The notes beneath the pieces are model-generated. The model was not told the origin of the DNA. It did not search any database and was given only the letters and a program-made list of their open reading frames with translations. DNA of 64,000 nucleotides from Mytilus trossulus (Eukaryota), in NCBI RefSeq assembly GCF_036588685.1, contig NC_086386.1, forward strand, positions 35,588,001 through 35,652,000, in the 5' to 3' direction. The first letter of the stretch is position 1. Each line of letters starts with the position of its first letter. Position numbers and translations under genes: made by a program. Below are positions 22,800-58,848 of this stretch, piece by piece.

Positions 22800-25700
22800 T
22801 TACAGTAACTTTATGTTTTTAAACATGTAAAACCCTACGGAATGCAACTTATCTATGTAAGACTCTGTGAGGTTTACTCTTTCTGGAACAGTAACCGAAC
22901 CAGGACAGAAACTTGAGTGAATAAGTTTTACACACCGACTGTTTACATGATAGTATGCATTTGCCATTTTCCCATCCTTTCGTATGTACCATTCATTGTT
23001 TTCCTTATTGTAAGATGGTCTGAGTTCGAGATGACGTATGACAACATCGTTAGGTTCTTGTTTGTCTGTAGCAGTAAAGCTTTTTTCACAGCCGTAACAT
23101 TGGGATATTAAACCTTGCAGGAATGTAAATTCATATATTTTATGTTCTGTGACACATGCTGTTGACACTTTTAAGTCTCTACAAGTGTTTCCTTGTGAAG
23201 AAGATGGTTGAAGGTTCATAGGTTGATTGTTGTTTGTCTGCCAGTCACGACGTTTTTTGTTATAATTTTTCGGACTTCAAAAGCTGTATAGCTATACTGC
23301 AATAAAATTTCATCTTCTGATGAAAATCCGATAGCCAAAAGAACAAAAAGCCTCTGCTTACATGGAACTTTTCCTTGCCTTACTTGAGCTTGTATTTCGG
23401 AAAATGGACATGAACAATTGGTTGTTTTGTCAAAATCAATGCTATAAAATTTACAACTGCTAGTTTTGATTGTAATACATGCTTGACTCGGAGAATATTG
23501 TTCAACATCTATGATTTTAAATACGTTTGGTTCGTTTGCTTTTTGCAGAGACACAGCGTAATTAGTACTGTGGTATGTTCTGCGCCGGCCACTTGGACGT
23601 GTTTTGTCTTCCGGTCCCTTATCAGCTCTATGTGCATCTCTTTCATTTGATTTAAAGGAAGACGTGGATGGTTGACATGGAGCAGTGCCTCCTTTGTACT
23701 GTTGGTCTAACTCTTTCATTAATTGTTCAGCATTTTTTGCTTCCTTTTCTCTACATTTGCCTTGTCGTAAATGCTTTGATGGACCTCCGCCAGATTTGGT
23801 AAACCCAAAACAGTATCCTTCAACACTTTTCTCAAATTTAAAACATTCGGAAATATCGAATATTGCAGTTTGTAAAATGTTTAATCCTGTACCACCTGTA
23901 AGCGACATAGACGCATGGGATGCCTCTGCCAAATTGGTAGATGGTACATATGTATCTCTGAATGCCTCCATTACATGGTTTCTCCGATTATCCCACCATA
24001 TCAACCACCTTTTCAACTGTTGTTTTCCTGATGTTTCGATAAATTTTTCCATCTGCGAGTACGCAGCATTGTACATCAGTGGTGTTTCAGCGTTTATTAA
24101 TTTATTCATGTGCTTTTTAAAAGCAGTAACAGCTGTATCTTTAAACCTCTCCCCAATAAATGCACTTGCTGCATGACGGTTTCCACAGGTTCGTAAATGA
24201 AACTGACAGGTCACAATTTTTTCATCATAATATTGTTTGCCATATCGTTTCTCAAGTGACGCGTGCACCCCCCCCCCCCCCCTCCTTCATCTAACATTAT
24301 GCCTGAATATGGTCGGAATTCTGGGATTTTATTTTCCCTGAATGATTGTAACATTTTATCAACTACAGACATGGCAAGGTCTACAGTCTTTTTATTCTCA
24401 TTTTCACAGTCCATACGAACAAGCCATGTGACATTTTTAAGTAGGGTATGATAAACACTTAATCCAAAACATTTCAAGTTTTTCCCCTTGTCGATTATGA
24501 CCATATTAACTTTAAAATCCATGAGAGCCCACTCTTCTCCTAAAAAATGGTCTTTGTTAGTCATGTTTCCTAATGTCTCCAATTTTTTTTTTAATGACTT
24601 TATTATATAAGTTTGGAAGTCTTCTGGAGTTTTTGTTTCTGTTATCTTTTTTACAATGGTGTTGCCTTCCACTGTGGAATGATAAATAAACCACTTGTCT
24701 CCATGTTCTTCTTTGATCTGATATTCAAAAAGAAGAAAAGGGTCATTGTATTGATGAAGACATTTCTCCTGCAGTTTTGATAATTTTTCTGACAGAGGAT
24801 CTTTATTGAAAGTTTGATTTTTCAAATTTCTAGTTTTCCTTGGATCCGATAAACTTTCGGCAATGTCCTCTACCTCTTCTCTGGAAGTTTATGTCTCTAT
24901 AGTTTTCATAATGAGCCTGTTTGTCATTTCTCTGGGTTTTAAATTTGGCATAATATCAAAAGTTTCTTTTATTTTTTCTTTAGGTAGTTTTGGTCTTTTC
25001 ATTGGGAAGCATGTATGAGATCCGTGGTGATGAACAGTAACATACTCGAGTACACTTTTTTAAATTCCCATATCTTGACAGCTTTGCAAGGGACGAAATC
25101 CACTAGGTTATTACACTCCTCACAGAAGACTTTCCCATCTCTGTTAACTAAATGGATACTATTTGGCTTTCCAAAATACTCTTTAAATGGACACTTTCTG
25201 TATTGACATTGGAAAGAACCTTTACAATTTGATCTCACCTATTGTTTTAGGGAATTCTTTGGTGAACGATTTGTTGTAACGTGTCCAATTTCTACCATCT
25301 TTTGTTGACTTCATATTTTGACCTTCATTTTTACTGTAGGAAACTCTATATGTGCAATTTCCATCAATGTTCCATGGAATTTCTTCCTCTATTTCAATTT
25401 CGCTGTCTGATGAATCTAACATCCTGGAGTAAGGTCGTTTTCTTTTTCCCAAAGAATATGTTCTCTTCCCATTTTCAGAAGTATCTTGTGTACTTGAATC
25501 GCTTAATTCAACAAATTTTCTTCTCCTTTTTGTTGTTAAGACAGGCATGTGATCTTGGTCATCATCAGAGGAGCTAGATATACATCTGTATTTATCTGGG
25601 GGTGAATGTACTGGACTTGATGTTATTTCAATGACATTGCTGCTGATTTTTTCTGGAGAATCCGATATGACAATAGGGTTTTCAGAGCTTATCTCTTTTG

Positions 25701-27748
25701 AGATGGAGTTTTCAGTTTCTTCAAGTTCAGGCAAATCATACTCAACTATATTCAGGTTGACAATAGATGAATTTTTATAAACATCTTCCAATTTTCTATT
25801 GGCAACTTCAAATGATAAGGATACAAACTTGCTTTCTAGACAAATGTCATCTCTCCCAATGAATTCAAAAAGGGCCGTTGCCTTAGTTTTTTTCTGAAAG
25901 TAGGAACCATCTATAACTTTTCCATTTTCGAAAAACTTCACAAATATCAGTGTATCCCTGAAACAAAATAACAGAATATTAAATATTGTTTTTTATGTGT
26001 GCATATTTTGTCCTTTTGTTCGTAAGTCTATCAGTTGTCAGGACTATTTTGGTGGTTCGTGATTTAGTTGATTATTCGTTTAAAGATAACTTCTGCAAGT
26101 TTCTAAAATTTAGTCTTTACTATTTTTATTCATCATCCCAATATGTAGTAGTTGAACCTCCTTATTTAAGTTCAAAGAGATCCATTCACCATGTTCACGT
26201 AAACTAAAGTTGTTGTCAAGACACAAAATGTGTCTTCGGACGACGCAGACGACGACGACATCATACCATTATATACGATAAAAAAATTTGTCGTCGTTTA
26301 AAAGATGTGGTATTATAATAATTGCAAATGAGACAACTCTCCACAAGAGACCAAATGACACAGAAATTAACAACTATAGTTCACGGTATGGCCTTCAACA
26401 ATGAGCAAAGGTCACACCACATAGTCCAACTATGAACGGTCCAAAAATTACAAATTTGAAATGATTCAAATCAGAAAACTAACGACCTAAAAACATTTAC
26501 AAAAAATATTTTTAAACAAAAATCTAATACATCAACAACTGACTCCTGTCTTGGTACAGGCACATACATACAGAATGTGGCAGGGTTAAACATATTAGCG
26601 GGATCCTAACCCTCCCACTTACATGGGACAGTGATGAAACATTATAATTTGAGAACGAAATGTTCATACATGTAGTTTAATTTTGGACCCTTTTGACCTG
26701 AATGTAGACAAGCCAATTTAAAAATGGGGTCCAATATTCAACAAGATTTCTTGTTATTGTACAATACTATGCTACTAAGTTATTGTCTGGAAATTACAAA
26801 AAAATGCTCATATTTCCTGAACATTTATGGCAATTACTCCCAAACTTAATACGTGGCTTTCTCTTGTGATATGGAACCTTTTGGTACAAATTTAAGTGAG
26901 ATCCATACACTTTCATACAAGATACTGAAATTACAATAAACAGCTATGCCTGTCGCTTTTTCAATGACTTCTCAATGTCATTTCCGAAATGCGGGAAATA
27001 CTAAAGGAAGGTTTTCTTAATACTTAAAAATCAAACTTTTTTATGAAAATATTCCCAAAACTCGGAAACATAACAACCTTAAATTTAAAAAAAATGAAAT
27101 GGAGCTTACATCAATAGATATGATCAATTCAAAGTTTTATGAAAACTGCCAAAATCATTTTTGGCCTAGCATCGACCGAAAACTAGAATAAAACCCCCTT
27201 TTTAATGGAAAAAAAACATGATATTAAACCTAAAAACATACAATCTAAAATGTATGAAAGATGAAAGGGAGCTCACATCAATAGCTATTAACAAGTCACT
27301 GAAGTTTGTCCGACATGTTGACAACGAACTGACGGACAGGCTTTTTTATTGCCCCTATTCGGCCTCGAATTCCTAAACTATTGATACCATAATGTATCAA
27401 TTATAGAGTTACATAAAACCATCACCCCCAAAACTCAATCTCAATCGTTCTTTTTATTGTATTGAACCTTCTGGTAAAATTTCTTATTTCACTTAAACTA
27501 AAAGTTATCGCCTGGAAACTAATGTGTCCTGGCAACTTGAAACTTCAGGCCAGTTTAAGTTTGGACTAACTAATAAGGCTAGCGACATATAAACAACGGA
27601 AGCAAGTGCGGAGATTTAATTTTAATTGGTTCTCGAAAAGAAGAGGTTCCAAAAAGATTTTAACCAAAGGCAAAGACTTTTGATTTTATTTAAAAAAAAA
27701 TCGAGATGAAAAAAACATTAAATGGAATTCTTACCTTTCAGAAGTCAT
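22800..27748 (-). pseudogene. Spliced MULE transposase, frameshifted (GCM/WRKY-like Zn finger - DDE - SWIM - C-terminal Cys/His finger)
   Basis: Exon 27735-27748 (ATGACTTCTGAAAG|GTAAG) splices in frame to the acceptor at 25957. Motifs: DGRNW...CKGSFQC..C..CEEC; WALMD; IMLDE; CQFH; TNLAEASH; CSC..PCKQ; CYGC...YYHVNSRC. Frameshifts near 25235, 24830-25050, 24270 (poly-C) and 23220. Confidence 0.75.
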
Positions 27749-32723: not shown

Positions 32724-33065
32724 AACACATGAATCTGTTTTTATTAATAAAATATACAAGCAGCCTTAACTAACGATTAACCGATGAGTCCTAATGAAAA
32801 TAAACATGATTTTCAAAGAAATGAGATGTCATTATAACAATTAAAACACCAATAATCAGGATATGCCACATTGATCATACGATGAAAGCAAATAAGATGA
32901 CAAAAACATGTTGTATTACTGGTTTTTTTTAGTAAAGAAATGAATTCTTTGGCCCGTTTGTATTAGAAAAGAAATAAAAAGAATATCGTTATTATATTTT
33001 ACATACACCTCAAAGCTTAAAGCTGTTAGTCGACTTATTATGATCTGGTTAATAGAACGATAAAG

Positions 33066-36000
33066 ATGTTATTGCATGCTTTTCTTATATTTTTACCTTT
33101 GTGCCGTGGTATATCAAGAACTGACCAAGACTTCTTCATTGATCATAACAAAACATTTCATTCTTGTGAGATAATAATACAAGAGTTAATTGAATCAGCT
33201 TTGGGATGTGCCAATTTATGTACCAGCAAGTCTAACTGCTGTGCTGTCAGTTTTAATAAAGTAACACACTCATGTAAACTGGCGTCATCTTGTGCATATG
33301 TAACACTACATTCAGAGACTACATGGATAATAAGAAAAACTGTCGATATAGGTAAGGAAATATATCATTTACACTCATACAAGCATATATATTATACTCT
33401 TCGGCAATCTCATTAAAATCCGATGTTCTGATACGCTACCGTATCAGAACATCGGATTTTAATGAGATTGACTCTTCGGCGTCTTTTGACTAGTAGCCTT
33501 TTTTGTCGTCCGGTTTTATGACAATGTTCGGCACTATGTCTATATGTTATCACGACACACGTATCATGTACAATAATATGCGCGCATAATTGGTCCATAA
33601 TTGGATTATTAGAGTATATTCTTATTCTTATACAGGCATTTAGAGAGAGACATAGTTGTTGCATTGGCACTCATACCACATCTTCTTATATCTATTTTCT
33701 TTAAACTATCAAACAGATATTTTATTCTATATTGGTCAAATATTTTTGAAGTAGTTTAAGAATAAGATTGACTGATTGTTGATTGTTTGACGTCCAGTGG
33801 CAAGTATTTCACGCATGATTAGTATGAGTTGATGAATAAGAGTATAAGCACTGAAAATAAATGCAAGTTGCTAACTACAGCTCTTGTTGTGCTAGAGTCC
33901 GTCTCCATGCTTAGTTTTGCATATATTTTTAAAGTTGACTGCATCACATTTCACTGCTTTTTCAGAATTTTGACAACTTCGTTCTATATAATAAAGCTAA
34001 TAATGAATTATATTGAAAAGATGAAAAAAAACAAAAAAACACCCTCAGCCTGTGTATAACCGGCTGAAAATTCAAAGTCCAATTTAATTTGTTTTTATTA
34101 AATATTTTAATAATATTTTTGCAAGATTTTATCACAACCAACTTATTTAAATTCAAATCATCGCTGAAACAAGTATTTTAAAACAAAAATCTATAGTAGC
34201 AGCTTGGTTGAATGCATTTTTTTAACAGATATCGTCAAACCTACCGACTTCAACTATTTACCTTTAGGAGACACTGTAAAATCATTTAAGAAAATACAAG
34301 CCTTGTAATATCTTATCAACTGGGAGATATATGCTCAGTATGCAAATGCGGCGCTGGAATGTTGCTACATAGAAATGGAAAGCTGAAATCTTCTCTTTTG
34401 CCATAAAGCTTTATTTTGAACCGACCTTCATTGTCCTTCATTGTCAACTTCTAGATGTAAATCCAATGCTGACAACCAAGGGCCCTTAATTGGTACAATA
34501 GATATTCTTCTGCTTATTTTTTTTTAATTTTTAGAACAATCTGCGATAATGGACTGTAGCGATTTACCAATGGAAAGCAGCGGACAGTATGAAATGATCC
34601 CATGTAATTCCAACGTAATTCAAGTTTATTGTGCAGAAGGCGGATGGTTGGTGCGTATCATTTAATCAAGATTCAATAGCTTATCTCAGTAAATGAATGG
34701 GTTAAACGATAGCTAAACGTTTACAATGCTTACCTTCCCCGTTATATAGAAATCATTTTTTTAATATTTTAAAGAGGAAATTTCGTGCCGGCAAAATCTT
34801 AATTTTCAATGCAGCTGTTCTGTTTCTATTTATTTGCCTTGTTCGTGTACTGCATAAAAGATTTAATTGTTCCTAGCTTGCTTAGACTATTGGCAGAAAC
34901 AAGCATTTAGTAAAAAAAATGTAGTCATACTGCAGAAAATGCTAAAGATGTACATTGAAAGACGTCCATTATCACTGTACTAGTATACATATTTTTTAAG
35001 GGGGCAGCCGTGAAAGACGCCTACGAGTGCGGGAGTTTCTCGCAACATTGAAGACCCATTGGTTGCCTTCGGCTGTTGCCTGCTCTATGGTCGGGTTGTT
35101 GTCGCTTTGAAACTTTTCCCATTTCTTTTCTCAATTTTATAACATGAGGGAAACTTGTTACAAAACGGCATTATCAAGGCCTTTAGTTGAATTCGAATGG
35201 CCAGATATGTATGCTTGAAATTTAGGATGGAAATTGAGAATATATAAAAGAGACAACAACCCGACCAAAGTGCAGAAAACAGCCGAAGTTTTAAACACAG
35301 CGAAAAAATCCCGCACCGGAGGCGTGCTTCAGCTGGCCCCGAAACAAAAATGTATACCTAAAAACGTGCTTGCATTTCCAGCACGCACGAAATACTGTCT
35401 TCTGCAATTCCTGAATGTGTGAAGGTAAATACTTGAATCTCAATAATATACAGTTTACGGTTACTTTTATGCTAATTGATATTTCACTTTTTATGCTAAT
35501 TGATATTTCACTTGTTATGCTAATTGTTATTTCCCTTTAAGGTGATCCAGAGAAGACTTGATGGCAGTACAGACTTTAACCGTAATTGGACAGATTACAA
35601 ACAAGGCTTTGGAGATATCACTGCAGACTTCTATATTGGTAAATTAATCGTATTGTTTTCAAGTCTTTATGACCACATACATGTATGCATACCACATTTA
35701 CATATTTATTATTGGTTTTACAGAGCATTTTTATTTGACAATACCGTAATTTTCTAGCTTCTTTTTTCGGCTATTTATCTCCAAATACAATTTATCAATG
35801 CTCGCTGCCTGTTCAACATTTTCGTTGAAAAATTAGAAGAACCATCTTCAAGCATACTAATGTAAATGATATATTTACAGTAAGATGTGATTTGACTGAT
35901 GTTTTTTTCTGAGATGCATTATTTTTTTAATTAGTTGATGTGAGTAATAAATTAGCTGTCAGTATCTGCTCTCAGATATTAACTTGGTGTCTTTTTTGTT

Positions 36001-38409
36001 TTGGTGATGTGTAATACAATGCCATGAAGTGTCTGTGTTGCTGTTACATATTGTTCTGTTTTGTTTCAGTCAGAAAAGTTAGGCCATTTTCAACAGTTTT
36101 TTTTAATTTTGTAACATAACTGTACTAGAGATGGGGTTTGGTGCCAGCAAACTAGTTTAAACCCGCCACATTATGTATATACATGCCCCAAGTCAGATGC
36201 CTGTAATTAAGTGGTTATCGTCTGTTGATGTGTACCATATTTGTTTTTGTTAATTTTTTTGTACATAAGTCCGTTAGTTTTCTCGTTTGAATTGATTTAC
36301 ATTCTTCATTTCGAGACTTTATATAGCCGACTATATGGCATGGGTAATTGTTGAAGTTGCACAGTCTTCGTTGTTATATAAAAAGAAGATGTGGTATGAT
36401 TGCCAATGAGACAACTATCCACAAAAGACCAAAACGACACAGACATTAGCAATAACAGGTCACCATACGGCCTTCAAAAATGAGCAAAGCTCATACCGCA
36501 TAGTCAGCTATAAAAGGCCCCGATAAGGCAATGGAAAACAATTCAAACAAAAAATTTAAACTAACGGCCTTATTTATGTAAAAAAAATGAACGAAAAACA
36601 AATATGTAACACATAAACAAACGACAACCACTGAATTTCCAGGCTCCTGACTTTGGACAGGCATATACATAAAAATGTGGCGGGGTTAAACATGTTAGCG
36701 AGATCCCAACCCTCCCCCTAACCTGGGACAGTGGTATAACAGTACAACATAAGAACGAACTATAAAAATCATTTGAAAAAGGCTTAACTCATCAGATGGA
36801 CAAAATACACGTAGAAAGGTTCGTTGTTGTTGTTATACACCAATTCATCATCCTTATCTGATTTGTGAAAAAAATAACAAATAATCAGCTTTTGTAATAG
36901 GTANNNNNNNNNNNNNNNNNNNNNNNNNNNNNNNNNNNNNNNNNNNNNNNNNNNNNNNNNNNNNNNNNNNNNNNNNNNNNNNNNNNNNNNNNNNNNNNNN
37001 NNNNNNNNNNNNNNNNNNNNNNNNNNNNNNNNNNNNNNNNNNNNNNNNNNNNNNNNNNNNNNNNNNNNNNNNNNNNNNNNNNNNNNNNNNNNNNNNNNNN
37101 NNNNNNNNNNNNNNNNNNNNNNNNNNNNNNNNNNNNNNNNNNNNNNNNNNNNNNNNNNNNNNNTTTTATTATGAATACAATCTTATTATTACAGGAAATG
37201 ACAATCTTCACACAATTCTATCTAGAAAGAACTACACATTGCGGATAGACCTGGAGGACTGGACAAACGAGAATCGATATGCAGAGTACAACACATTCCA
37301 TGTAGGAAATGAAACAACAAATTATGTACTTTCAATTGGTGAATACAATGGAACAGCTGGTAGGTGTAGACAAATTAAATCGAATCTATCATAAACAGTG
37401 TTTACCCATAGTAACTAGTATGTGAACAAAACAATCATATATAAATCAGTATAATGTTATATTCACATGTATATGAAATTTGTTTTAGAGCTAGACAAAT
37501 TGAGAATGGAAATGGGGAATGTGTCAAAGAGACAACAAACCGACCAAAGAGCAGAAAACAACCGATCGAAGGCCACTAAAGGCTCTTCAATACAGAGAGA
37601 AAATCCCACACTCGGAGGTGTGCTTCGACTGGCCCTAAACAAAAATGTATACTAGTTCAGTTATAATGGACGTCATTCTAAACTTCGGAAGAAATAAAAT
37701 AAACAAAGTGTCGATTAGTTTACCATCTTGAATATATAGTTTTATAAGAAGTGTACATCATGCTCATACTTTAATTTGGAATTCTATGCAATGCCTTCTA
37801 TATTTCTATTGTAAGATATAGTCTTATATTTTTTTTTATGTCAGCATATATGGTTGCGATTTAATTATAAATACAGGGTGAATCTATTAAAAAATCATGA
37901 TCTTGAACAAATAAATACAGACGGAGTTTATGTAACATTTCTGTAACAAACTCATATTTATATTTTTACTACATAATTCGTGTAGTTGGTTTTCTCGTTT
38001 GATTTATTTTTACATTTTGTCATACCGATGCAACTTACTATACATGAGGCATGGGTTCTGTTGATAATAAGAGTCAAAGTTGCCTGTAAAAATCCAGTTG
38101 GAAAGAACCGCAAAATACATGGTTATTGTTTTAATTCCAGGCGATTCCATGAAGGGGGAACGGTATTCGAAGGAGCTTGATGGCATGCAGTTCAGTACGT
38201 ATGATCGCGATAGCAGCATCTGTACTAAGCGTCTGAGATCTGGATGGTGGCATAATGTATGCACTGACGCAAACCTGAATGGTCAATACTACCCAGGAGT
38301 AAATCACACCAACGCAATTGATACTATCTTCTGGTGGACATGGCATCCTGATTTTATTCCACTGAAGTCCGTTACTATGAAAATAAAGTCCCGACTGAGA
38401 CAGACATAA
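33066..38409 (+). CDS. Secreted PAN/Apple-domain fibrinogen-related protein (FReD/FREP-like), 310 aa, 5 exons
   Basis: Exons 33066-33351, 34535-34650, 35542-35638, 37195-37359, 38141-38409 total 933 nt in frame with GT-AG sites. Signal peptide [15 protein letters not shown]; PAN pattern [18 protein letters not shown]; fibrinogen motifs [74 protein letters not shown]. Confidence 0.9.
33405..33470. mobile_element. 66-bp perfect-hairpin mini-MITE with a 9-bp TSD
   Basis: 31-bp perfect arms around loop CTAC, flanked by ACTCTTCGG (33396-33404 and 33471-33479). Confidence 0.8.
36904..37163. other. Assembly gap (260 N) in intron 3 of the FReD gene
   Basis: Run of N. Confidence 0.99.
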
Positions 38410-41638: not shown

Positions 41639-43900
41639 ATGGAGAAAAGTGTATCATACTCTACAAAGGATTGGGATGATGTTCCAGACGTTCCTCTTCT
41701 CCACGTGTCATATCTCATTCATATATTATTACCAAGACGCCATTTTGGGCATGATCGACTTCTGATAAAAAAAACCCAGAAAATTCTTGAAAGACTTTCC
41801 TATGTAAAGGAGTTTATTCCAGACAAGTTACACATTGTTCCTGTCGGAAGTAAGTTAGAAGGTTGTGGGATACCAGTTGCTGTCAGATTGACTGATGAAC
41901 CATATATTGAATATATGTCTGATTTCGACGTAATGCTTGTGCGAGATGAATTCTCGACTTTGACCAAAGAATTTGAAAAAGATGGAACGAAAATGTCAGT
42001 TTTTATTGAGACTGCTCAAACTCACCCTGGATATGGACGTGTACGGTTCGCTTCTACAGTGAAACATGGCACAAACATGACAAACAACACACTGATACAT
42101 CACGGTGGTCAATCAGATGAATATTATTTGAACTTTTCTGCGATAATGCGCGAACAGGCTGACATGATGGCAACACATACAAATGATGGTTTGAACTATA
42201 ATCAACATGGTCCAGCCATTACTGCAGACGACCCAGTGCCTATGACACTGGAAAGATTGAAAACAACAAAACTGATTTACCCCCTAGACTGTATATTTGC
42301 TATTCCTTGTAATTCGTGGCCAGAATGTGCAATACCATGGATTAAGCGAAAACGCACTAATGATTGGCTGTAAATTGACACTATTAACTTGATTATATCC
42401 GCGGGATTCCATATGGTACCAGTAGCTCACCGATTAAGCAGTAATCCTGAAATTGAGTGGAGACTGTCATTTGCAAATGCTGAAAAAATACTGGCTGAAC
42501 AGGCGGTCACTTCAGCGCAACGACAATGTTATAGTTATCTTAAAATCTTACGTAAACATACTATGGAGGAAGACACTAAATTTTCATCTTATTACCTTAA
42601 AAACGTATTTTTATATTGTTGTGAAGAATTACCAGTTCGAATTTGGGAGGAAAACCCTGCTGGATGTGTTTTGTACATGCTAGATATTCTTTTAGAATGC
42701 GTTCAAAAAAGAAACATCCCTAGTTACTTTTTACCAGAAAATAACTTGATAGATTATTTAGATGATGCGGAATTACAATCCATCGAATCAGCTTTTCAAA
42801 CAATCCGTTGTAATCCGATTGCACCAATTTTAGAATTCACAGATTCAAGAATGTTCTGTTATGGTCAGGAAAGCTTAAGTTATAGGACAACTTTCCGAAG
42901 CATTGTTCAGCTAGTACTAAATGAAATTGTTTCAATTAAAGATGTTGATATTGGTAGAACCGTCTTAGGTTGCTTCACTGATATCCAATATAACATTGCA
43001 ATAGTGATGCTTGGCGAGAAGCGGACATCGTTTTCATACCATTTGGATTTTTATCACCATTTTGTACAGAAATATATACAGATGTCTTTTGTGGAATATG
43101 TTAATTATATGGGTATAGTTTTAGAAAAGCCTTCTTATGCGTTAACGTTTTATGAGAAATGTTTGGCTGGGGTAGAAAACTTCACAGAACTTGAATATTT
43201 GAAAGGAAATATGGCATGCATGTGTTTTGCTTTATCACTAACTCATGATGATAAATCGAAAGAAAGAAAATTGCGATTATACTAAGCAGAGAATATTTAC
43301 AACGAAGTACTGCAAAATAGTGGTATTCATTATGCTAGCACCATTAACTTTGCAAACTTTCTATGTTATAGCGAAAGATGGAAAGATGTAATTCAGTTGC
43401 TTGAAAAATTCATTGAGGCAGAGAGAAAACGACCATCGTCAATGCATAACAGTTATCACCCTAACGAATCTATAACACTGAATCTTCAGCTTCAAATGGA
43501 GGTCAAATATCGAGGCTGCTTCTTTGCAAGTTCTTTGTCATTTGCATATTATTTCCTAATAAAAGCAGCTATTGCAATAAAGTTGCCAAAAGTGTTAGAT
43601 ATTATGGAAAGCTTTGAAATGCACGGCCATTCTGTGAACAGTTATGGAGATCATAGACTTCTAGAATATATTAGACTTGACACTAAAGAATACATTCTAT
43701 CAGAGCTAGCTTTTTCCTACAGCTCTTATTTGCAACGAACACCGGCTAAAAAGCCACATCGGGTTGTAAACCTGAAAACAGATTTCAAATATTGTCTCAT
43801 CGTAGCTTATCTGCTATATGACAATGCTGCTAAAGCAACAAATTTACTTTTCAAAAGGAGATTCCTGTGTATTGATACAAGTGACCTTTACTTGTTTTGA
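41639..43900 (+). pseudogene. cGAS-like receptor (Mab-21 NTase + TPR-like) paralogue with two in-frame stops
   Basis: Colinear with the 50841-53093 gene, all in one frame. TAA at 42371-42373 and 43283-43285; in-frame deletion in the last TPR-like unit; VGS / SDFD / LDCIF motifs retained. Confidence 0.85.
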
Positions 43901-48914: not shown

Positions 48915-50840
48915 GTAAGTATATGATAAGAAACTTTTCATTTATTATTTGTTACTACAACTACCATGTTTGTTTAACAACAGCTTAAACTTTTTTCTTA
49001 TAAAAATAAACAAGTTTTCAGTTAAAAAATGGACATATTTCGAGCTACTTTCATATTTAAAAAAAAACTACGATTAATTCAAATTATTTGATCACAGTTT
49101 TTAGTTTCCAGGTTATTTACGTATTTATTTCTGAAAGTTCACTTTATTATGTCATTCAATTATCCATGCAGTTAATTTATTACTGTCTGCAATTAAAATA
49201 ATGAAATAACTATGGTAAGCCTTTTACATATCTATTCAATTTCAACATATATTATATTCTTTATAAATATCTTATTTAATCGGAAGATTAAACAACATCT
49301 TAAGTTATATTATATACTTGGTCAGATTTCTTAAAAGCAATACAAGATATCTCGTATAATTGATTTATCATATATCTTATTTTGCTTATGAGATATGTTT
49401 TGAAATATAGAAGATATTTTATTTGAATATATATCTTATTTAGTTTTATAAAATATCGGATTTTATATATAAGATATATATTATTTATTCTTATAAAATA
49501 TCTGATTTAATATATAAGATACATTGTTCTATTTATCATGTTTATATGATATATCAATTAGTTTATAATAATTTATAAACTAAGCTTAAGAGAGGCGATA
49601 CATACCAAAGGGATATTAAGAGTCATAAATCGAAATAAGCTGACAATGTCATGGCTACAAAAAGACATACAGACAAACAAAAGTACAAAATACACAACAT
49701 AGAAAACTATAAGGACTGAGCAAAACGAACCGCACAACAAATCTTGGGATGATCTCTGATTCTCTGAAAGGGTAAGCAGACATGTAAGATATCTTATACT
49801 TAAGAATAATGTATTATTATTTAAGTCGTTCACCGTCACAGATTATATCGGAAATGTTCCTTATGTCATAACAACAATTCCCTTCCCTTTCGACGAATGT
49901 GACTTACCGAATTAGGCTATTGACCAGATTTGTAAAAACATAAGCAACACGACGGGTGCCACATGTGGAGCAGAATCTGCTTACCCTTCTGGAGCACCTT
50001 AGATTATCCCAAGTTTTTGGTGGGACTAGTGTTGCTTAGTCTTTAGTTTTTCTATGTTGTGTCTTCTTTTTGTTATTTGTCAGTTTGTCTTTTTATTTTT
50101 AGCCATGGTGTTTTCAGTTTATTTTCAATCTATGAGTTTGACTGTCCCTCTGGTATCTTTTGCCCTTCTTTTTAAGAGATTGGTTTACAAGATATATTCT
50201 CTAGTTTATAAAGTTTATAAGTTGATAAGTCCTATTTAAAAATTATATAAATGGTTAAATAACCAGTTTCAATCCACCATTTTCTACTTTCGAAAATGTC
50301 TGTACCAAGTCAGGAATATGACAGTTGTTGACATTTGTTTGGTGTGTTTTCTCATTTTATTATGCTATTTGATTAGGGACTTTCCGTTTTGAATTTACCT
50401 CGGAGTTCAGTATTTTTGTGATTCTATTTTTTATTAGATATCTTACAGTTTATTATTAAGTTTATTACTATCTTATGTAGTTTATAGGATATCTTTTATG
50501 ATATCTTTAAACGGAGTAAACCGATAGTTTAAGGTATCAAAAAGTGAGAAAAAAAATCCTAGATCAACAAGTTATTAATATTTATCTTTAATTGAAAATA
50601 AACAGGTAGTAAACTCTACTTAAACTGGTGCTAGGTGCCGTCTTGCACTTGCCATTTCAATTGACTTTGAGATGGAGAACCGAAATAAAAGCATTGATAA
50701 CTGGTATTTTAGTTTTAATTTGATAATTTGATGTGTACATGTATATTGGGTTATGCATGATTACAACATACTTTTGTTTTCTGCCACTAAATACATAGTT
50801 CGTCTTCATTGAATTCATTTACTTATCTATTTAGGTGAAT

Positions 50841-53093
50841 ATGCAGAAAAGTGCAGCATACTCTACGAAGGATTGGGATGATGTTGCAGACGTTCCTCTA
50901 CTCCACGTGTCATATCTCATTAATATATTACTACCAAGACGCCATTTTGGACATGCTAGACTTCAGATCGAAAAACAGAAAATTCTTGAAGGGTTCTCAA
51001 ATGTAAAGGAGGGTCTTTCAGGCAAGTTACACATTGTTCCTGTTGGAAGTAAGCCAGAAGGCTATGGGATACCAGATGCTGTCAGATTAACAGATCAACC
51101 ATATATTGAATATATGTCTGATATCGACGCCATGTTAGTGCGAGAGGAATTTTCCGCTTCGGCTAACGAATTTGAAAAGGACGGAACAAGAAATCCAGTT
51201 GTTATTGAGACTTCTCACACTCACCCTGGGCATGGACGAGTACGGTCCAGTTCTCCAACAGACATAAACAGTAAAGTGTTATATCACGATGCCGAAACAG
51301 ACAAGTATTACCTGAATTCCTCTATAATAATGGAGGAACAGGTAAAAATGATGGAAACCAGCGCAGACGATGGCTTAGAATATTCTCTGCAATGTCCAGC
51401 CGTTTCGTCAGACGACCCTATTCCAATGACACAGGAGAGAGGAAAACAATCGAAACTTTTTCATCCCCAGGATTACGTGTTTGCTATTACCTGTATTTCG
51501 TGGCCAGAATGTGCAATACCATGGACTAGGCGGCAGCATACTAATGGTTGGTTGGCAGCTGACATTGTTGACTCGATTGTTTCGAAGGGAATCCATATGG
51601 TACCAGTAGCTCACCGATTAAGTTGTAATCCTGACATTGAATGGAGACTATCGTTTGCAAAAGCTGAACAAATCCTGGCTGAACAGGCGGTTACTTCAGC
51701 ACAACGACAGTGTTATGTTTATCTTAAAATCTTACGTAAGCATGCCATGCAGGAAAACACTAAACTTTCATCTTACTTTCTTAAAAACGTATTTTTATAT
51801 TGTTGTGAGGAATTACCAGTTCGAGTTTGGGATGACGACCCTGCTGGCTGTGTTTTGTACATGCTAGACATTCTTTTAGAATGCGTTCAAAAAAGAAACC
51901 TCCCTAGTTACTTCTTACCAGAAAATAACTTGATAGATTATTTAGACGAGCCAGAATTACAGTCTATTGAATCAGCTCTACAAACTATTCGTAGTGATCC
52001 AATAGAACCAATTTTAGAATTCACAGATTTAAGAATTTTCTGTTATGCTCAGGAATGTTTAAGTTATAGCACAACTTTCCGAAATATTGTCCGGCTAGTC
52101 TTAGATGAAATTGCCTCAGTTGAAGATGTTGATATTGGAAGAACCGTCTTAGGTTGTTTTACTGATATTCAGTGTAATATTGCATCAGTGATGCTAGGCG
52201 AGAAGAGGACATCGTTTTCATACCATTTGGATTTTTATCAGCTTTTTGTACAGAAATATATACAGATGTCCTTTGTGGATTTTGTTAATTATATGGGAAT
52301 AAGACTAGAAACGCCTTTCATTACGTTGATGTTTTATGAGAAATGCTTGGCTGAGGTAGAAAACTTCCCAGAACTTGAATATTTGAGAGGGAATATGGCA
52401 TGCATGTGTTTTGCCTTAGCACAAAGTCACGATGATAAATCGAAAGAAAGAAAAATGCGCTTATACCAAGCAGAGAAACTTTACAACGAAGTTTTACAAA
52501 ATAATGGTATTCATTTTGCTAGCACCATTGACTTTGCAAACTTTCTATGCGATAGTGAAAGATGGGAAGAAGCAATAAGTCTGCTTGCAAAATTCATTGA
52601 AGCAGAACGAAAACGACCATCGTCCATGCAAAACGGATATTATCCTGCCGAATCTACAACACTTAATGTTCAGCTTCAAAGGGAGGTCAAATATACAGGT
52701 TGCTTCCTAGCAAGATCTTTGTCATTTGCATATTATTTCATGATCAAAGCAACCATTGCGACAAAGTTAAAAAACTTGGCAGATATTCTGGAAAAATTTG
52801 AAAAGCATTGCCAGTCTGTGAACAGTTATGGAGATTATGAACTTCTGGGATACTGTGGACTAGATACTGAAAATTACGTTCTTGCAGAATTGGCTTTTTC
52901 AAAGGCTGCTAATTTACATCAAAATAATTTACTAGCACAGGTGAACCTTAATCTTTGCAGAGCCAACGATCAACCAGCCAAAAAACAGCCTCGGACTGTT
53001 AACTTGAAAATAGTTTTTAAATACTGTCTCAGCATTGCTTATCTGCTAGATGACAATGTATTTCAGGCAACAAATCTACTTTTTGAAAGATGA
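50841..53093 (+). CDS. cGAS-like receptor (cGLR; Mab-21-family nucleotidyltransferase) with C-terminal TPR-like repeats, 750 aa, single coding exon
   Basis: VPVGSKPEG (hGS), YMSDIDAM (DxD), QDYVFAI (third Asp), SWP, GIHMVP, EWRLSFAKAE, LSSYFLKNVFLY, LPSYFLPENNLI; helical tail GNMAC..AEKLYNEVL..DFANFL..WEEAI..LLGYC..AELAFSKA..LAQVNL. Confidence 0.9.
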   Translation: MQKSAAYSTKDWDDVADVPLLHVSYLINILLPRRHFGHARLQIEKQKILEGFSNVKEGLSGKLHIVPVGSKPEGYGIPDAVRLTDQPYIEYMSDIDAMLVREEFSASANEFEKDGTRNPVVIETSHTHPGHGRVRSSSPTDINSKVLYHDAETDKYYLNSSIIMEEQVKMMETSADDGLEYSLQCPAVSSDDPIPMTQERGKQSKLFHPQDYVFAITCISWPECAIPWTRRQHTNGWLAADIVDSIVSKGIHMVPVAHRLSCNPDIEWRLSFAKAEQILAEQAVTSAQRQCYVYLKILRKHAMQENTKLSSYFLKNVFLYCCEELPVRVWDDDPAGCVLYMLDILLECVQKRNLPSYFLPENNLIDYLDEPELQSIESALQTIRSDPIEPILEFTDLRIFCYAQECLSYSTTFRNIVRLVLDEIASVEDVDIGRTVLGCFTDIQCNIASVMLGEKRTSFSYHLDFYQLFVQKYIQMSFVDFVNYMGIRLETPFITLMFYEKCLAEVENFPELEYLRGNMACMCFALAQSHDDKSKERKMRLYQAEKLYNEVLQNNGIHFASTIDFANFLCDSERWEEAISLLAKFIEAERKRPSSMQNGYYPAESTTLNVQLQREVKYTGCFLARSLSFAYYFMIKATIATKLKNLADILEKFEKHCQSVNSYGDYELLGYCGLDTENYVLAELAFSKAANLHQNNLLAQVNLNLCRANDQPAKKQPRTVNLKIVFKYCLSIAYLLDDNVFQATNLLFER

Positions 53094-53934
53094 TGAATGT
53101 ATATGTATACTTATGTGGGTTTTACATGTTTTGACAATCGTCAGTTCATTGTAAATTGTTTTCCTAAGTAAAAAGTATGAAATAGCATAAAGGAATTGTA
53201 AGAATTGTTTTGTATTTGACATACGATTTAAATAAATATTATATGCTAATTTTGTTATATCGTGTGGCTGGAAATAACAAGGTCAAAGAATATATTTACA
53301 GAGCTCATTTTGATGAAAAGGGCGAAGTTAGCATGTATATACTGTTCTTAAGCCGAAAGTGTCAAACAAATTATCTGCAACAATATTTGAAAAATCTCCT
53401 TTCAATTTCAGACAAAACAATCTACTGGTTAACACATGAAACAACATAAAGCAATGTCATATTCATGTAGGTGAGGTACAACTGTGATTTTTACTTCAAA
53501 AACTGAGTCTAAATCTGCTTATGTAGAAAAATGTCTAGCGTTCTAAATTATAATCCTGGTACCTTTGATAGCTATTCTCTCAATAATGTGAAAATTCCAA
53601 ATTTTATAGCTATAAATACGTTACCATCATAAATTCTGAGTGTAACCCCAATTGCGTCAGGTCAGATGGAAAATCCCAACTAAAAATAAACGTACTCTCA
53701 CTGGTCCGGACATATACCCCTGTTTGCCCATATTCTTCCATTCAATTTCCATCTGCGACATCGGTCACACGTGCACATCAAGTTTTACAGATTCAACAGA
53801 GAAGTGTTTAGTTTTTTGAATAGCTTAATTGCTTTTCATATATATTGTGTATTTTATTGGAAATATATTCCCTTGTTTTGTTTAAATTTCTAAACAAATT
53901 ATTTGTGTTTTTTTTTACTAAAGTAAAATTTATT

Positions 53935-54105
53935 ATGGACTTTAATTTGAATAGTCCGTATGTAAGTATTCCTGGTTCGGACTATCTCTTAGATGGGTCA
54001 CTACCTTTAAGTCCCCCCCAAACTACCAGTACATTGACCGGAGTTTCGACAACGGTGTCTGGTAATGCTACCTATCCGACCCTTTCACAAGGTTCGGCCA
54101 TGCAT

Positions 54106-54136
<31 letters not shown>

Positions 54137-55825
54137 GGGTTACCTACGTCAACTTCGGTGACTCATACTTTATCTAGGTCTGTTAATTCAGCGGGTACTA
54201 TTAGTTCTGTCCCAGGTACAGCTATGGGCTTGAACTTGCCAGGTTCTAGACCCCCATTATCATATTGTGGGTATATGCTTCCCAACACGGGCACACAACC
54301 TTTACCCTCATGGTCTCAGCCACCTTGGCCACAGTCTTACCCTTATGGTGGGTTTATGCCAAACCAACCTGGTTTTTGGCCTTATAGGGACAATTTCTAT
54401 GGTCCCCCTTCTGGGGTAGCTACTGCACCACCTTTAGCTCCTGCTCTACCCCTAGCAGTATCTTTGACTTCTGCAGTAGCTCCTTCTACCACCGTACCTG
54501 ACTCTCAAGCTTCTAGTTCTTCTCATGGTACTCAGGTTTCTGATCATGCATCACCTTTGGATGGTTTACAGAAGTTACTCTTAGACTTTGGTGAGTCTTT
54601 CAAGGCTGAATTTAGTACTCTATCCAGTCATATGACTCTACTGGAAAATATAGTTTCTTCTCATCAACCTTCTACAGCTAAGTCTGTAGAATGTGATGAG
54701 AGGGAGGATGACGAGCTTTCTGTTTCCCCTGGGAGTCATGAAAGGGCTTTCCTCACTGATGAGCATGTTGAAAGTTCTTCTTCTCCCAAGGTATCGAAGA
54801 CGGCCCCTGAGCCTTCTTCTAAGTCAGCTCAACAACCTCCCACCAAGGAGACTGAGGATCCTCCTTCCTTGAAGGATCTTAGGGATAAGGTGTATACCTT
54901 GATGAGGGATGAAGCACATATCCCTTTTGCCTCTCCTTCCAAGCCGAAGAAACCTTCTTCAACTTTTGAAGCTTCCTGTGGTATTTCTCAGGATACTGTG
55001 ACTTCTCACAATTCTTTTCCTGAATCTGGCCATATGGCTTTTGCTTTACAATTTATTAATGAAGGTATCGCTAATTCTGCTAGTGAAAAGGTTGCTAATA
55101 ACAATATCTGAGGATTTGGAATGTCATCCTTTTCTGATCAGGTTAAGTACAAGGATTTTGATATCTTTGATTCTTCACTGGGTAGACTTGTTCCCAGTTG
55201 TGACAAATCTATGTCATCTTTATTGGGAAAAAAACCAGTAGATGGTCTTCGTCTCACTCAACCTGGTTGGTCAAAGACTGAGAATCTCCTTCGTAGTGCT
55301 TCTCAAGTTCTTGGCACAGCCGAACATTTTCTAGCTGCAACCGGACATTTGCTTAACAGCGAAGATTCGGTTGTTCCAGCAGAAGTACGATCCTTCTTAC
55401 TTCAACTGGATAAAGCTTTAGGTTCATCTCAGTTGCTTTTAATGGGTTCTATTGCTAATTGCACCCTATCTAAAAGAGCAGAGTTTCTTGAAAACATTTC
55501 TATCGCTGAGACTTTGAAAGATTCTTTACTGAAATCTCCACTCTCTGACAAGATGTTTGGTTTACCCTTACAGCGGGTTCAAGAGGAACTCAGCAAAAAC
55601 CCTCCTCCAGTCAAAGTTAGTGTACAAGTTACTAATGGCAAGAGGTCGGTTAATGCTACATCTAGTTCTACTAGTACTTCTGCTTCAGGTGGTCCTCCTT
55701 CTTCTGCTAAGAAAAGGAAGAATAACTACGGCAAACCGCAGAACAAACCCAATAACTCAGGAAAAAGCTCAGGTAAGCCTTCTGGTGGTTTTAAGGGTTC
55801 CAAGAAACCTGGGTCTAGTACCTAG
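53935..55825 (+). pseudogene. DIRS ORF1 (gag-like)
   Basis: ATG at 53935; frameshift at the poly-T/poly-G tract ~54105-54138; in-frame TGA at 55109-55111; Pro/Ser-rich N-half and basic C-terminal tail. Confidence 0.75.
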
Positions 55826-57932
55826 GTTCTTGCCCCCTCGTACGTTATTGACAGCTTCCCCAGGGGAAAATTTACAACAAGTTCCTCAAAAATCAATACC
55901 AGTAGGGGGGATGTTAAGTTTTTTCCTAAATCAGTGGAAGAAAATTACCTCGGACTGTTATGTGCTGTCAATAATTCGAGGGGGATTAACACTTCAGTTC
56001 AAGAACCCACCTCCTCTGTCTGCAGTTCCAATAAGTTTGTCTCATACTCAAGACCCAGTCAAGTGGCAACTTCTATCAGTAGAAGTGGACACTATGTTAC
56101 AAAAAGCTGCAATAGAGGAGGTGTCGATCTTAACTCTGTCTCCGGGATTTTATTCCCGTCTTTTTCTGGTTCCAAAGAAGACTGGAGGAATGAGGCCATC
56201 TATTCTGAACAAATTTCTTATTGTTCCCCACTTCAAAATGGAAACAAACAGATCCATCAGGGCTTCAATCTTTCCAGGAATGTGGACTACTTCTCTGGAT
56301 CTTTCAGACGCGTATTTCCACATTCCCATTTCCAAAACTTACAGGAAATACCTTCGCTTCGTTTGGAACAACAAAGTTTTCCAGTTCAAGGCTCTCCCTT
56401 TTGGCCTGTCTACAGCCCCTTTGGCTTTTACCAAAATCATGCAGGCAGCTATAGCTCACCTACATTCCCTGTCTATTCAGATTCATTCCTATCTGGACGA
56501 TTCCCTTCTCAAGGAATTTTGCCCAATCAAATTGAGGGTTCAGACAGATTTGGTCATCAATTGTTTTCTGTCCCTAGGCTTCCTTATCTCTTGGAAAAAG
56601 TCAGAGATAATTCTGTCTCAAGACTTTGTTTTCCTGGGAGAACATTTCCTAACCAGTGTAGGTCTAGTCCTCCCACCAGAGGAGAAATTTACAAAACTAT
56701 GTCAGAAAATACATTTATTCCTGACGGTTCAATCAGTCACAGCACGTCAATTCTTGCAACTTCTGGGTCTATTGAACTCTCTGGCAGATGTAATTCCATT
56801 GGGACGACTTCACATTCGTCCGCTTCAGTTTTATCTGCACAAGTTATGGATTGCAGCTTCACAAGAATGGGAAGCATTGATTCCAATCACTCAGCCTTTA
56901 TTTCCACACCTTCAATAGTGGTTAGTACGGGAAAATGTAATGAGGGGCCTATGTCTGTCCCCTCAAGTTCCCAGTCTAACATTATTCACAGATGCCTCCA
57001 CCCTCGGTTGGGGAGCATATCTGGAGGGGCTTACAATCTCGGGAGTCTGGAGTCCAGATCTTTTGGAAGAGCATATCAATGTATTGGAAATGAAAGCAGT
57101 TCTGTTTGCACTGAATCATTTCCAAATGTCTCTAAAGAATCAGTCTGTCATTCTGGCCACGGACAATACAACAGTTGTAGCTTATCTCAAGAATCAGGGA
57201 GGAACTCATTCACCTTCTCTTTATCAGATAGCCAGAGACATTCTCCTTCTGTGTTTTCAACTCCAGGTTCATCTAGTGGTGAGACATATTGCGGGGCACC
57301 TCAATATTCTAGCCGACACTCTATCCAGATCCCTTGCTCCAGTAAACACGGAGTGGGAACTACTTCAAGTAGTTTTCAAAGCTGTGACTCTTCATTGGGG
57401 GTCACCTCAGATAGATCTGTTTGCGACCAGTCTCAATCACAAACTTCTAACATTTGTGTCTCCGGTTCCAGATCCAAAATCTTTTGCGGTAGACGCAATG
57501 AGCCTATCTTGGAAAGGAATGTTCGGGTATGCCTTCCCTCCTTTCAGGTTTCTCTCCCCAGTACTTCAGAAAATAGCAGGGGAAAATTGCAAGATCATAG
57601 TTATTGCTCCAGTATGGCCAAAACAGTCTTGGTTTCCAGACCTTCTGCGCCTATCATGTGCTTGTCCTCTAGTTCTACCTCTGAGACCAGACCTTCTGTC
57701 TCAAATCAAGGGCAAGGTTCTTTATCAAAATCCAGAAAAACTTCATCTACACGCCTGGCTTCTCTCAGGGTTAGCCTCAGAAAGAGAGGTTTTTCTGAAG
57801 GAGCAACCAAGCATCTCACAAAGTCTGTCAGAGACTCCACTAGCATTGTCTATGATGCAAAATGGTCAATCTTCTCAGATTGGTGTAGTGAGCGGGAAAT
57901 TGATCCTTTCCAAGTCACTGTACAACAATTAG
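55557..57932 (+). pseudogene. DIRS ORF2: reverse transcriptase - RNase H - DNA adenine methyltransferase-like domain
   Basis: FYSRLFLVPKK, LDLSDAYFHIPI, PFGLSTAP, YLDD; FTDAS..GWGA, HINVLE, TDNTT, ADTLSR; IDLFA, YAFPPF. In-frame TAG at 56916-56918; apparent loss of ~4 aa after GGMRP. Confidence 0.9.
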
Positions 57933-58848
57933 CAGACTTTCTAGTTTTTCTTTTTGAATCCAAAGGATTATGTCCCTCTACTATTAAGGGATATAGATCA
58001 GCTATCTCAAGAACTATTCATATTTCTGGTGGCCCAGATTTTGGAATCAATGAGCATATTTCTCTTTTGGTTCGTAGTTTTAGTCTTGAAAGACCAAGAC
58101 AAAAAACTTTAGTTCCTAAGTGGGACCTGGGACTAGTTTTATCCTTTTTAAAACTTCCTCCTTTTGAACCAGCAGAAACAATAGATTTAAGGTTTCTTTC
58201 CTATAAATGCTGTTTTCTTTTAGCTTTGGCTTCTGGACGGAGAAGGAGTGAAATCCATGCCTTCTCTATTTCTGATGCTTGCCTTCTATTTAACAGGGAT
58301 AAATCTTCTGTTACTCTTTTAACGGATCCTGCTTTTTTGGCAAAGAATCAGATTCCAGATAAGGGTGCAGAACCAGTTGTGATTCCTGCACTCCCTAGCG
58401 ATTCTATTTCTGTACTTTTATGTCCAGTAAGAATCCTTTCTATTTATCTGGAAAGAACGTGTAGTTTACGTTCTGTTTCTAACTCAAGACTCTTTATTCC
58501 TATTAAAAAAGGAATCTCAGATCTTTCTGTTAAACTATTTCTACTTGGATATGCAAATGCATATCTTTAGCTTATGGTTCTTCTAAGGCAGAACTTTTAA
58601 ATAGTTTTAATGTTAAAGCTCATGATGTTAGGGGTATCTCTACATCCTGGGCTCTGTTTAACAGTGCATCTTTAGAAGAGGTACTGTCTGCAGGTTTCTG
58701 GAGAAATGAGAACTCTTTTATATCTCACTACCTCCAATCTATGGCTACTTTTGCCGAGAGTTTATACTCTCTTGGACCTATAGTTTCAGCACAAAGATTG
58801 AACTTTCCTCCTGTTTCTTCTGTTACAGGGGATTCAGCTTTATGTTAG
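55934..58848 (+). pseudogene. DIRS ORF3: tyrosine recombinase
   Basis: STIKGYRSAIS, ASGRRRSE, LCPVR; after a 1-nt frameshift at ~58533 it continues KAHDVRGISTSWA..GFW..SHYL to TAG at 58846-58848. Confidence 0.9.

Follow-up and report, generated by a model that had tools for sequence, protein, structure and literature searches.

Mytilus trossulus carries, on the forward strand of contig NC_086386.1, a cGAS-like receptor (cGLR) which, judged by its sequence and its predicted structure, combines an intact active site with a TPR-like tail. The protein, hereafter P0001, belongs to an expansion already catalogued in bivalves, its architecture has been published, and the gene itself is not new. The distal part of the tail, aa 513-706, is according to profile comparisons a discrete TPR-derived domain that some Gammaproteobacteria also carry, in giant STAND/TPR proteins. 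From sequence and model we give roughly even credence to the reading that P0001 is a signal synthase, off by default, whose activity a ligand other than nucleic acid would control by way of the tail. All coordinates refer to the window, which is the whole stretch of 64,000 nucleotides analysed (contig positions 35,588,001 to 35,652,000).

The gene and its ends were defined as follows.

50841..53093 (+), intact coding sequence of the acidic tailed cGLR P0001, 750 aa (ORF, Pfam, NCBI/UniRef match, pI 5.27)
50833..50834 (+), AG resembling a splice acceptor, 6 nt 5' of the ATG (pyrimidine tract and AG)
53231..53236 (+), AATAAA, possible polyadenylation signal (sequence only)

The reading frame is a single exon that runs from the ATG at 50841 to the TGA at 53093 without internal stop; the opposite strand is closed, with no open frame there, and the protein is present in NCBI/UniRef, identical letter for letter. 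A length of 750 aa and a gap-free alignment starting at the ATG of P0001 are common to five records from Mytilus and one from Logan, and the M. edulis model CAG2194817 differs from the other orthologues in its N-terminus. A longer protein of which this frame would be an exon truncated at the 5' end was rejected, since the orthologous records start at the same ATG. The acceptor-like site also precedes a tandem copy of the gene and its AG is likely the end of an intron that follows a non-coding first exon. Two contigs from sequencing runs begin matching at 50838 and 50833, preceded by 53 and 19 unmatched letters respectively, which is a weak hint given that their RNA origin was guessed. Among 24 sequencing runs, with RNA origin likewise guessed, none contained half of the gene's words; run contigs cover parts of both P0001 and the tandem copy and cannot show expression.

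The catalytic core and the segment that precedes it contain five features.

50871..50942 (+), N-terminal segment specific to the clade, aa 11-34, modelled as ordered (conservation, pLDDT)
50904..52028 (+), two-lobed cGAS/Mab-21 nucleotidyltransferase core without zinc thumb, aa 22-396 (human cGAS matched by VIA at Z 29.6; Foldseek; Pfam)
51045..51050 (+), G69-S70 activation-loop motif (alignment of relatives)
51120..51128 (+), D94-I-D96 metal-binding pair (D at 94 in 45/50 relatives, D/E at 96 in 45/50)
51471..51473 (+), D211, third catalytic acid (D/E in 42/50 relatives; alignment to Sp-cGLR1 and MB21D2)

The 50 aligned relatives are single-core, single-tail full-length proteins obtained by the homologue and tail-profile searches. 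Of these, 38 retain the G, the S and the full set of acids, and 39 the three acids. D211 aligns to D184 of Sp-cGLR1 (8gjy) and to D207 of MB21D2 (7lt1), on the third catalytic strand. Two conserved core positions are changed in P0001, namely H131 (Y in 41/50) and C185 (G in 36/50). The N-terminal segment, in which D13, P32 and H22 are conserved in 45, 46 and 35 of the 50 relatives, co-occurs with the tail, and the AlphaFold model has a pLDDT of 90-98 over aa 1-30.

Pfam places Mab-21 at aa 179-279 (E 9.5e-8) and Mab-21_C at aa 288-378 (E 2.8e-16), both above cut-off. The AlphaFold model, made from 67 sequences (pLDDT 91.2, pTM 0.86), has the cGAS-like fold that had been anticipated, and VIA-align superposes the core, about aa 22-396, on cGAS with Z 29.6 and an rmsd of 3.1 Å over 316 aligned residues. 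Three properties by which Li et al. recognize a cGLR were found: a GS loop with an acidic catalytic triad (G69-S70, D94, D96, D211), homology over the nucleotidyltransferase lobe and the C-terminal helix bundle (Pfam; structural alignment of aa 22-396) and predicted structural homology to cGAS/cGLR. The zinc thumb of vertebrate-type cGAS is absent, residues 219-366 of P0001 being aligned to 172-336 of the cGAS chain and 17 residues shorter, and no His/Cys cluster occurs at that place in the P0001 sequence. In vertebrate cGAS the thumb is an insertion in the C-lobe. The original prediction of a 750-aa ORF with a full nucleotidyltransferase signature, Mab-21 lobes and a TPR-like tail was therefore accurate, as seen from the intact ORF, Pfam and the AlphaFold model.

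The cGLR pattern printed in PMC9980059 consists of h[QT]GS with spacers X8-20 and X50-90. P0001 falls outside this pattern, with V before GS, a spacer of 23 between S70 and D94 and one of 114 between D96 and D211. Table S1 of the same paper accepts orthologues with the same spacing as P0001, so its authors do not themselves treat the printed spacing as a definition of cGLRs.

Foldseek ranks MB21D2 first (E 5.9e-13), with Sp-cGLR1, Cv-cGLR1 and cGAS also in the top ranks, and MB21D2 is the top sequence match as well (E 4.5e-19). This is in favour of an alternative in which P0001 would be a silent or non-immune scaffold of nucleotidyltransferase fold, like MB21D2 or Mab21L1, that acts by nucleotide binding or protein modification and has a tail that recruits the partner or substrate. 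VIA-align has cGAS and MB21D2 tied (Z 29.6 vs 28.9), however, and the retention of the full triad and GS loop in 38 of the 50 relatives argues against a scaffold, as do the large expansion and the tandem birth-and-death, which suit immune receptors. We regard this alternative as unlikely. Human MB21D2 (7lt1) and cGAS have the two-lobed fold of P0001 (aa 10/22-405) at an identity of about 17-20%, but their solved chains do not have its tail, and P0001 is acidic and lacks the zinc thumb.

TPR fusion is a listed cGLR architecture in the text and Fig. 1C legend of PMC9980059, and TPRs behind a Mab-21 domain are on record for oyster (PMC8195603). Bivalves are given tens to >200 cGLR genes, and for three Mytilus species Table S5 lists 218, 119 and 55 genes for cGLRs alongside 9, 8 and 5 for STING (PMC9980059). 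The Mytilus orthologues of P0001 in that paper are 88-91% identical where measured, and the nearest named relatives of P0001 are Mytilus proteins at 89-92% identity. The five accessions looked up, including CAG2250369, VDI60472, CAC5380911 and CAG2194817, as well as a Mercenaria relative, are all in Table S1, which classes the orthologues as cGLRs and credits them with putative active sites. Table S2 gives these orthologues and the Mercenaria relative one row each, Mab-21 only, with the tail of 350 aa unannotated (PMC9980059). The tail profile also finds P0033 and P0038, which correspond to XP_033761808 and XP_045169367 and carry the label PEP_TPR_lipo in Table S2, among 30 of 51 TPR rows. The accessible parts of PMC9980059 and PMC8195603 treat the tail as generic TPR and do not mention a bounded domain of 190 aa, its insert or bacterial homologues.

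The biochemical screen of PMC9980059 used poly I:C and dsDNA as stimuli and included no Mytilus protein. It did include Crassostrea virginica XP_022294497 (sample 78, a 740-aa construct), which stands without 'active' note and outside the 15 enzymes followed up. By eye, samples 77 and 78 have the clade's N-terminal, GS and Asp motifs, and neither has an 'active' note; for XP_022294497 the empty note could mean failed expression or simply that it was unchosen, and is no proof of inactivity. P0027, a look-alike of XP_022294497, shares 37% identity with P0001 across 717 aa. That a clade member is outside the followed-up actives also suits the scaffold alternative. With the fusion published, the orthologues in Table S1, tail homologues labelled as TPR in Table S2 and a dsRNA/dsDNA screen already run on an oyster clade member, the idea that this gene is a candidate for novel biology found no support. 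Sp-cGLR2 from Stylophora (XP_022802921) resembles P0001 in being long (712-aa construct) and acidic at its ligand surface; it makes 2'3'-cGAMP and its ligand is unknown in that paper. Its printed row, from which kinship was judged by eye, does not show the clade's N-terminal motif, and the homologue search from P0001 did not retrieve it.

Charge bears on the nature of the ligand. Section 6 of PMC9980059 gives dsDNA- and dsRNA-sensing cGLRs a pI >8.5 and proposes that acidic ones sense ligands other than nucleic acid, the trigger of acidic cGLRs being an open question in that paper. P0001 does not fit the profile of a nucleic-acid sensor, with its high pI and basic ligand surface: the pI of P0001, which is a whole-chain proxy, is 5.27, that of the core is 5.05 with a net charge of -20, and none of 18 relatives has a pI above 6.9. 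These values speak against a conventional dsRNA or dsDNA sensor that would work through the back-face groove of the core with a tail that merely localizes or scaffolds, and so do the lack of a zinc thumb and the oyster relative missed with poly I:C and dsDNA. On the other side, the spine segment aa 20-62 taken alone is basic (net +4), may provide a patch for nucleic acid and was counted against the non-nucleic-acid reading, orthologues vary mostly in the core, with aa 26-50 and 126-250 among its variable parts, and 9 of the 15 characterized cGLRs respond to nucleic acid (PMC9980059). Direct sensing of nucleic acid by the core appears improbable to us.

The tail is the most conserved part of the protein within the orthologue group. 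Seven Mytilus sequences vary at 24 of 312 tail sites versus 87 of 394 core sites (Fisher p 1.3e-7, which is overstated since the sequences are related, in a comparison without synonymous-site control), i.e. about three times less in the tail. Identity in the group amounts to 93-98% for the tail and 85-91% for the core, with aa 395-512 being 97-98% identical in most orthologue pairs (range 96-98%). Between paralogues tails differ strongly, with a mean identity of 22%, and each of the 43 deeper relatives compared is closer in its core than in its tail. Hence, as far as sequences tell, the tail seems paralogue-specific yet nearly fixed within the orthologue group, for which one conserved partner fits better than an arms race. 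Strongly different paralogue tails would be expected of a diversifying pathogen sensor comparable with NLR repeats, with a separate microbial molecule for each paralogue to recognize; the tandem doubling of tails in the paralogous locus L006, in P0009 and in others points the same way, and so does the fact that elsewhere the domain neighbours STAND ATPases and arrays of WD40 or ankyrin repeats. A tail that is more conserved than the core among orthologues is nevertheless the reverse of an arms-race surface. Since it varies less than the core, the view that the tail is a fast-evolving pathogen sensor is disfavoured and we consider it improbable. A role of the tail in autoinhibition or in binding a fixed ligand may apply. 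The high conservation would also suit the fixed host partner of a scaffold.

Three features make up the tail.

52062..52376 (+), proximal helical hairpins, aa 408-512 (DSSP on models)
52377..52958 (+), discrete distal domain, aa 513-706, TPR-like hairpins round an alpha/beta insert (profiles, alignments, model)
52629..52715 (+), alpha/beta insert, aa 597-625, consisting of a strand, two short helices and a strand (DSSP; insert-only profile)

A model of the tail alone (pLDDT 89.3) shows stacked helical hairpins and one insert, at aa 597-625; in the model it is this insert that distinguishes the distal domain from plain TPR arrays. Residues 395-409 have a pLDDT <50 in the tail-only model and are ordered in the full-length model. 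Core and tail submitted as two chains to complex prediction without alignments scored 0.01 against a mark of 0.34, which counts neither way. The designation TPR holds in part. The solenoid is TPR-like in the model, but TPR_19 at aa 543-592 scores 16.1-17.3 bits, below the Pfam cut-off of 25, and P0001 reaches no curated Pfam TPR cut-off. Of 48,161 chains compared, the Pins TPR matches the tail model best (Z 14.0, rmsd 4.9 Å, 252 residues), at a level common to unrelated helical repeats, the leading rows being mostly TPR-type proteins. The TPR solenoids of Pins/LGN, OGT and Tom70 have stacked hairpins like the tail, with Z up to 14.0, whereas the tail of P0001 has the alpha/beta insert. Foldseek with the tail model gave no match at E <= 0.001, which does not show a new fold. 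The TPR-S sensor domain (PF20308) did not match P0001 and matched 2 of 40 aligned tail proteins weakly (best E 0.0013).

A profile of six tails identified 575 representatives at E <= 0.001. Classification of the 150 matches listed yielded 61 with a Mab-21 C-lobe, 48 long proteins without it and 41 that are short or start near the domain. The part they share is aa 513-706. It is doubled in L006, P0009, P0021, P0023, P0025 and P0026, while P0028 and P0049 have two Mab-21 cores each, those of P0028 each being followed by a tail domain. Profile-profile comparison of mussel tails with 14 proteins of non-cGLR type gave a probability of 99.9 over 191 columns, a match that is partly circular since the 14 came from the tail-profile search. 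A profile of the insert only, built from cGLR tails alone, finds its target in 24 of the 48 long proteins lacking Mab-21, in every case within the domain, and in none of 48 shuffled or reversed sequences; the whole-domain profile also matches, more weakly, at 20 places beyond the domain, which makes its score generic in part. Since the insert alone finds the domain, mere generic TPR similarity was rejected as an explanation. In the ESM Atlas the same two mollusc clusters rank first for the mussel tail (0.93, 0.90) and for P0119 (0.93, 0.93). A word search with the P0071 domain returned only itself, 1 of 1006 candidates.

Pfam scans of 32 of the 48 long non-Mab-21 proteins showed TPR, ankyrin, WD40, HEAT, NB-ARC, NACHT, kinase, OTU, RickCE and DUF294. 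In 8 of the 48 a DUF294-like nucleotidyltransferase motif is followed by the tail domain. The DUF294-like nucleotidyltransferase family is known as protein-modifying rather than signal-making, and this arrangement is a further point for the scaffold alternative. The long proteins are mostly metagenome-derived and at least one is from an animal (Haliotis, P0114). P0114 and related sequences are TPR proteins of 800-2000 aa with the distal domain and without detectable Mab-21 lobe, P0114 being the only one named as animal.

One Gammaproteobacteria genome, G001, has nine strong copies of the domain in frames of 1548-5062 codons. Its giant ORFs, on two contigs (C1 and C2; L021-L027, L030-L036), contain NB-ARC, DUF7779, TPR arrays and in some cases a DUF294 nucleotidyltransferase, and several form tandem clusters. 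One copy, of which the flanks were read, adjoins ung, ogt, alkA and pfa genes, and a copy in another genome, G082, sits among cyo, amino-acid-catabolism and lysA genes. Animal contamination was rejected as the source of the G001 copies, given frames of this length and the flank-read copy among bacterial genes. A search of G001 for DotA gave no match, nor did its controls, so that it carries no information on a secretion system or an intracellular life style. The domain has a patchy distribution: in the order of G001, 3 of 86 genomes match, one of them partly, and in a sample of 400 Gammaproteobacteria, with at most 5 candidates per genome scored, 21 match, of which 8 (G001 included) reach the distinctive part and 13 the generic TPR start only. 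In a tree of 118 domain rows, made with a quick method and unrooted, the two sets cluster, with 3 label changes needed, and therefore we claim no donor or direction. The literature searched, with subscription journals mostly outside its reach, yielded no description of the aa 513-706 domain or its bacterial homologues, and the accessible part of bioRxiv 10.1101/2025.09.04.674280 makes no mention of TPR. It is conceivable, though in our judgement unlikely, that aa 513-706 represent an undescribed, mobile and TPR-derived binding domain that has moved between host-associated bacteria, in which it would cap giant STAND, nucleotidyltransferase and repeat proteins, and marine invertebrates, in which it would gate a cGLR clade.

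The window contains a second, broken copy of the gene.

41639..43900 (+), broken tandem paralogue, 9.2 kb upstream of P0001, 70-72% amino-acid identity, with in-frame TAA at 42371 and 43283

At the DNA level 41469-43974 matches 50662-53199 at 78.8%, and the copy retains the acceptor site and the catalytic motif. Run X2, for which RNA was guessed, has contigs nearly identical to this copy, one of which begins at the acceptor site after 86 unmatched letters. About 1 kb downstream of P0001, overlapping frames with internal stops at 54038-58570 (+) match RVT_1 (E 2e-15) and an RNase H-like domain and have a weak phage-integrase SAM-like match (E 0.05). This suggests a tyrosine-recombinase (DIRS-type) retrotransposon. 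Neither the tandem copy nor the retrotransposon is needed to explain the P0001 gene. Elsewhere in the window, exon-sized matches to PAN_1 (33030-33416, +, E 2.5e-4) and Fibrinogen_C (36885-37394, +, E 1.5e-14) probably belong to a fibrinogen-related lectin-type gene; a run of N occupies 36904-37163. Four overlapping frames of 158-356 aa at 22800-25992 (-), without Pfam match at E 0.1, are possibly a decayed DNA transposon.

A core profile search of the 1.3-Gb genome found 47 of 60 scored matches in frames of at least 600 codons; these are the best 60 of 533 candidates, with one locus listed twice and frames read through stops. The distal tail domain was matched at seven places. One of the paralogues, L006 (592-3687, -, on contig C10 of the mussel genome G000), has 1031 codons, a tail doubled in tandem and Q-E rather than D at the third catalytic position. 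A second, larger group (L013, L015-L020) consists of single-exon cGLRs of roughly 660 aa with a weak distal-domain match (best E 1.7e-10 to about 1e-3). Possession of a tail may thus be a general feature of the mussel cGLR expansion. In this genome tailed enzymes look like the rule, though such entries figure in the published table with Mab-21 as their sole domain.

According to the mechanism we propose, the resting enzyme would be off, and the tail would bind one conserved protein or peptide partner and thereby relieve inhibition. The activating ligand would be other than dsDNA or dsRNA and be sensed through the TPR-like tail, and the product would be a cyclic dinucleotide acting on STING. 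The best single guess for the product would be 2'3'-cGAMP, because it is the commonest product in the published screen (PMC9980059). STING_LBD has 4 matches above cut-off in this genome by profile search, and Mytilus species carry 5-9 STING genes (PMC9980059). For a gated synthase that is off by default we counted the catalytic residues, the fold, the low pI, the near-fixed tail, the ordering of aa 395-409 and the STING sequence, together with the unflagged oyster XP_022294497 and the acidic Sp-cGLR2 that makes 2'3'-cGAMP, both as given in that paper; the changes at H131 and C185 were counted against it.

The clade offers clean boundaries for deletion, with the core at 1-396, the tail at 408-706 and the distal domain at 513-706. 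If the tail gates the enzyme, this would explain why full-length members were missed in a nucleic-acid screen, and cGLR sensing would extend beyond DNA and RNA. If the distal domain is indeed mobile, these would be the first cGLRs turned on by a protein ligand via a dedicated sensor module shared with bacteria.
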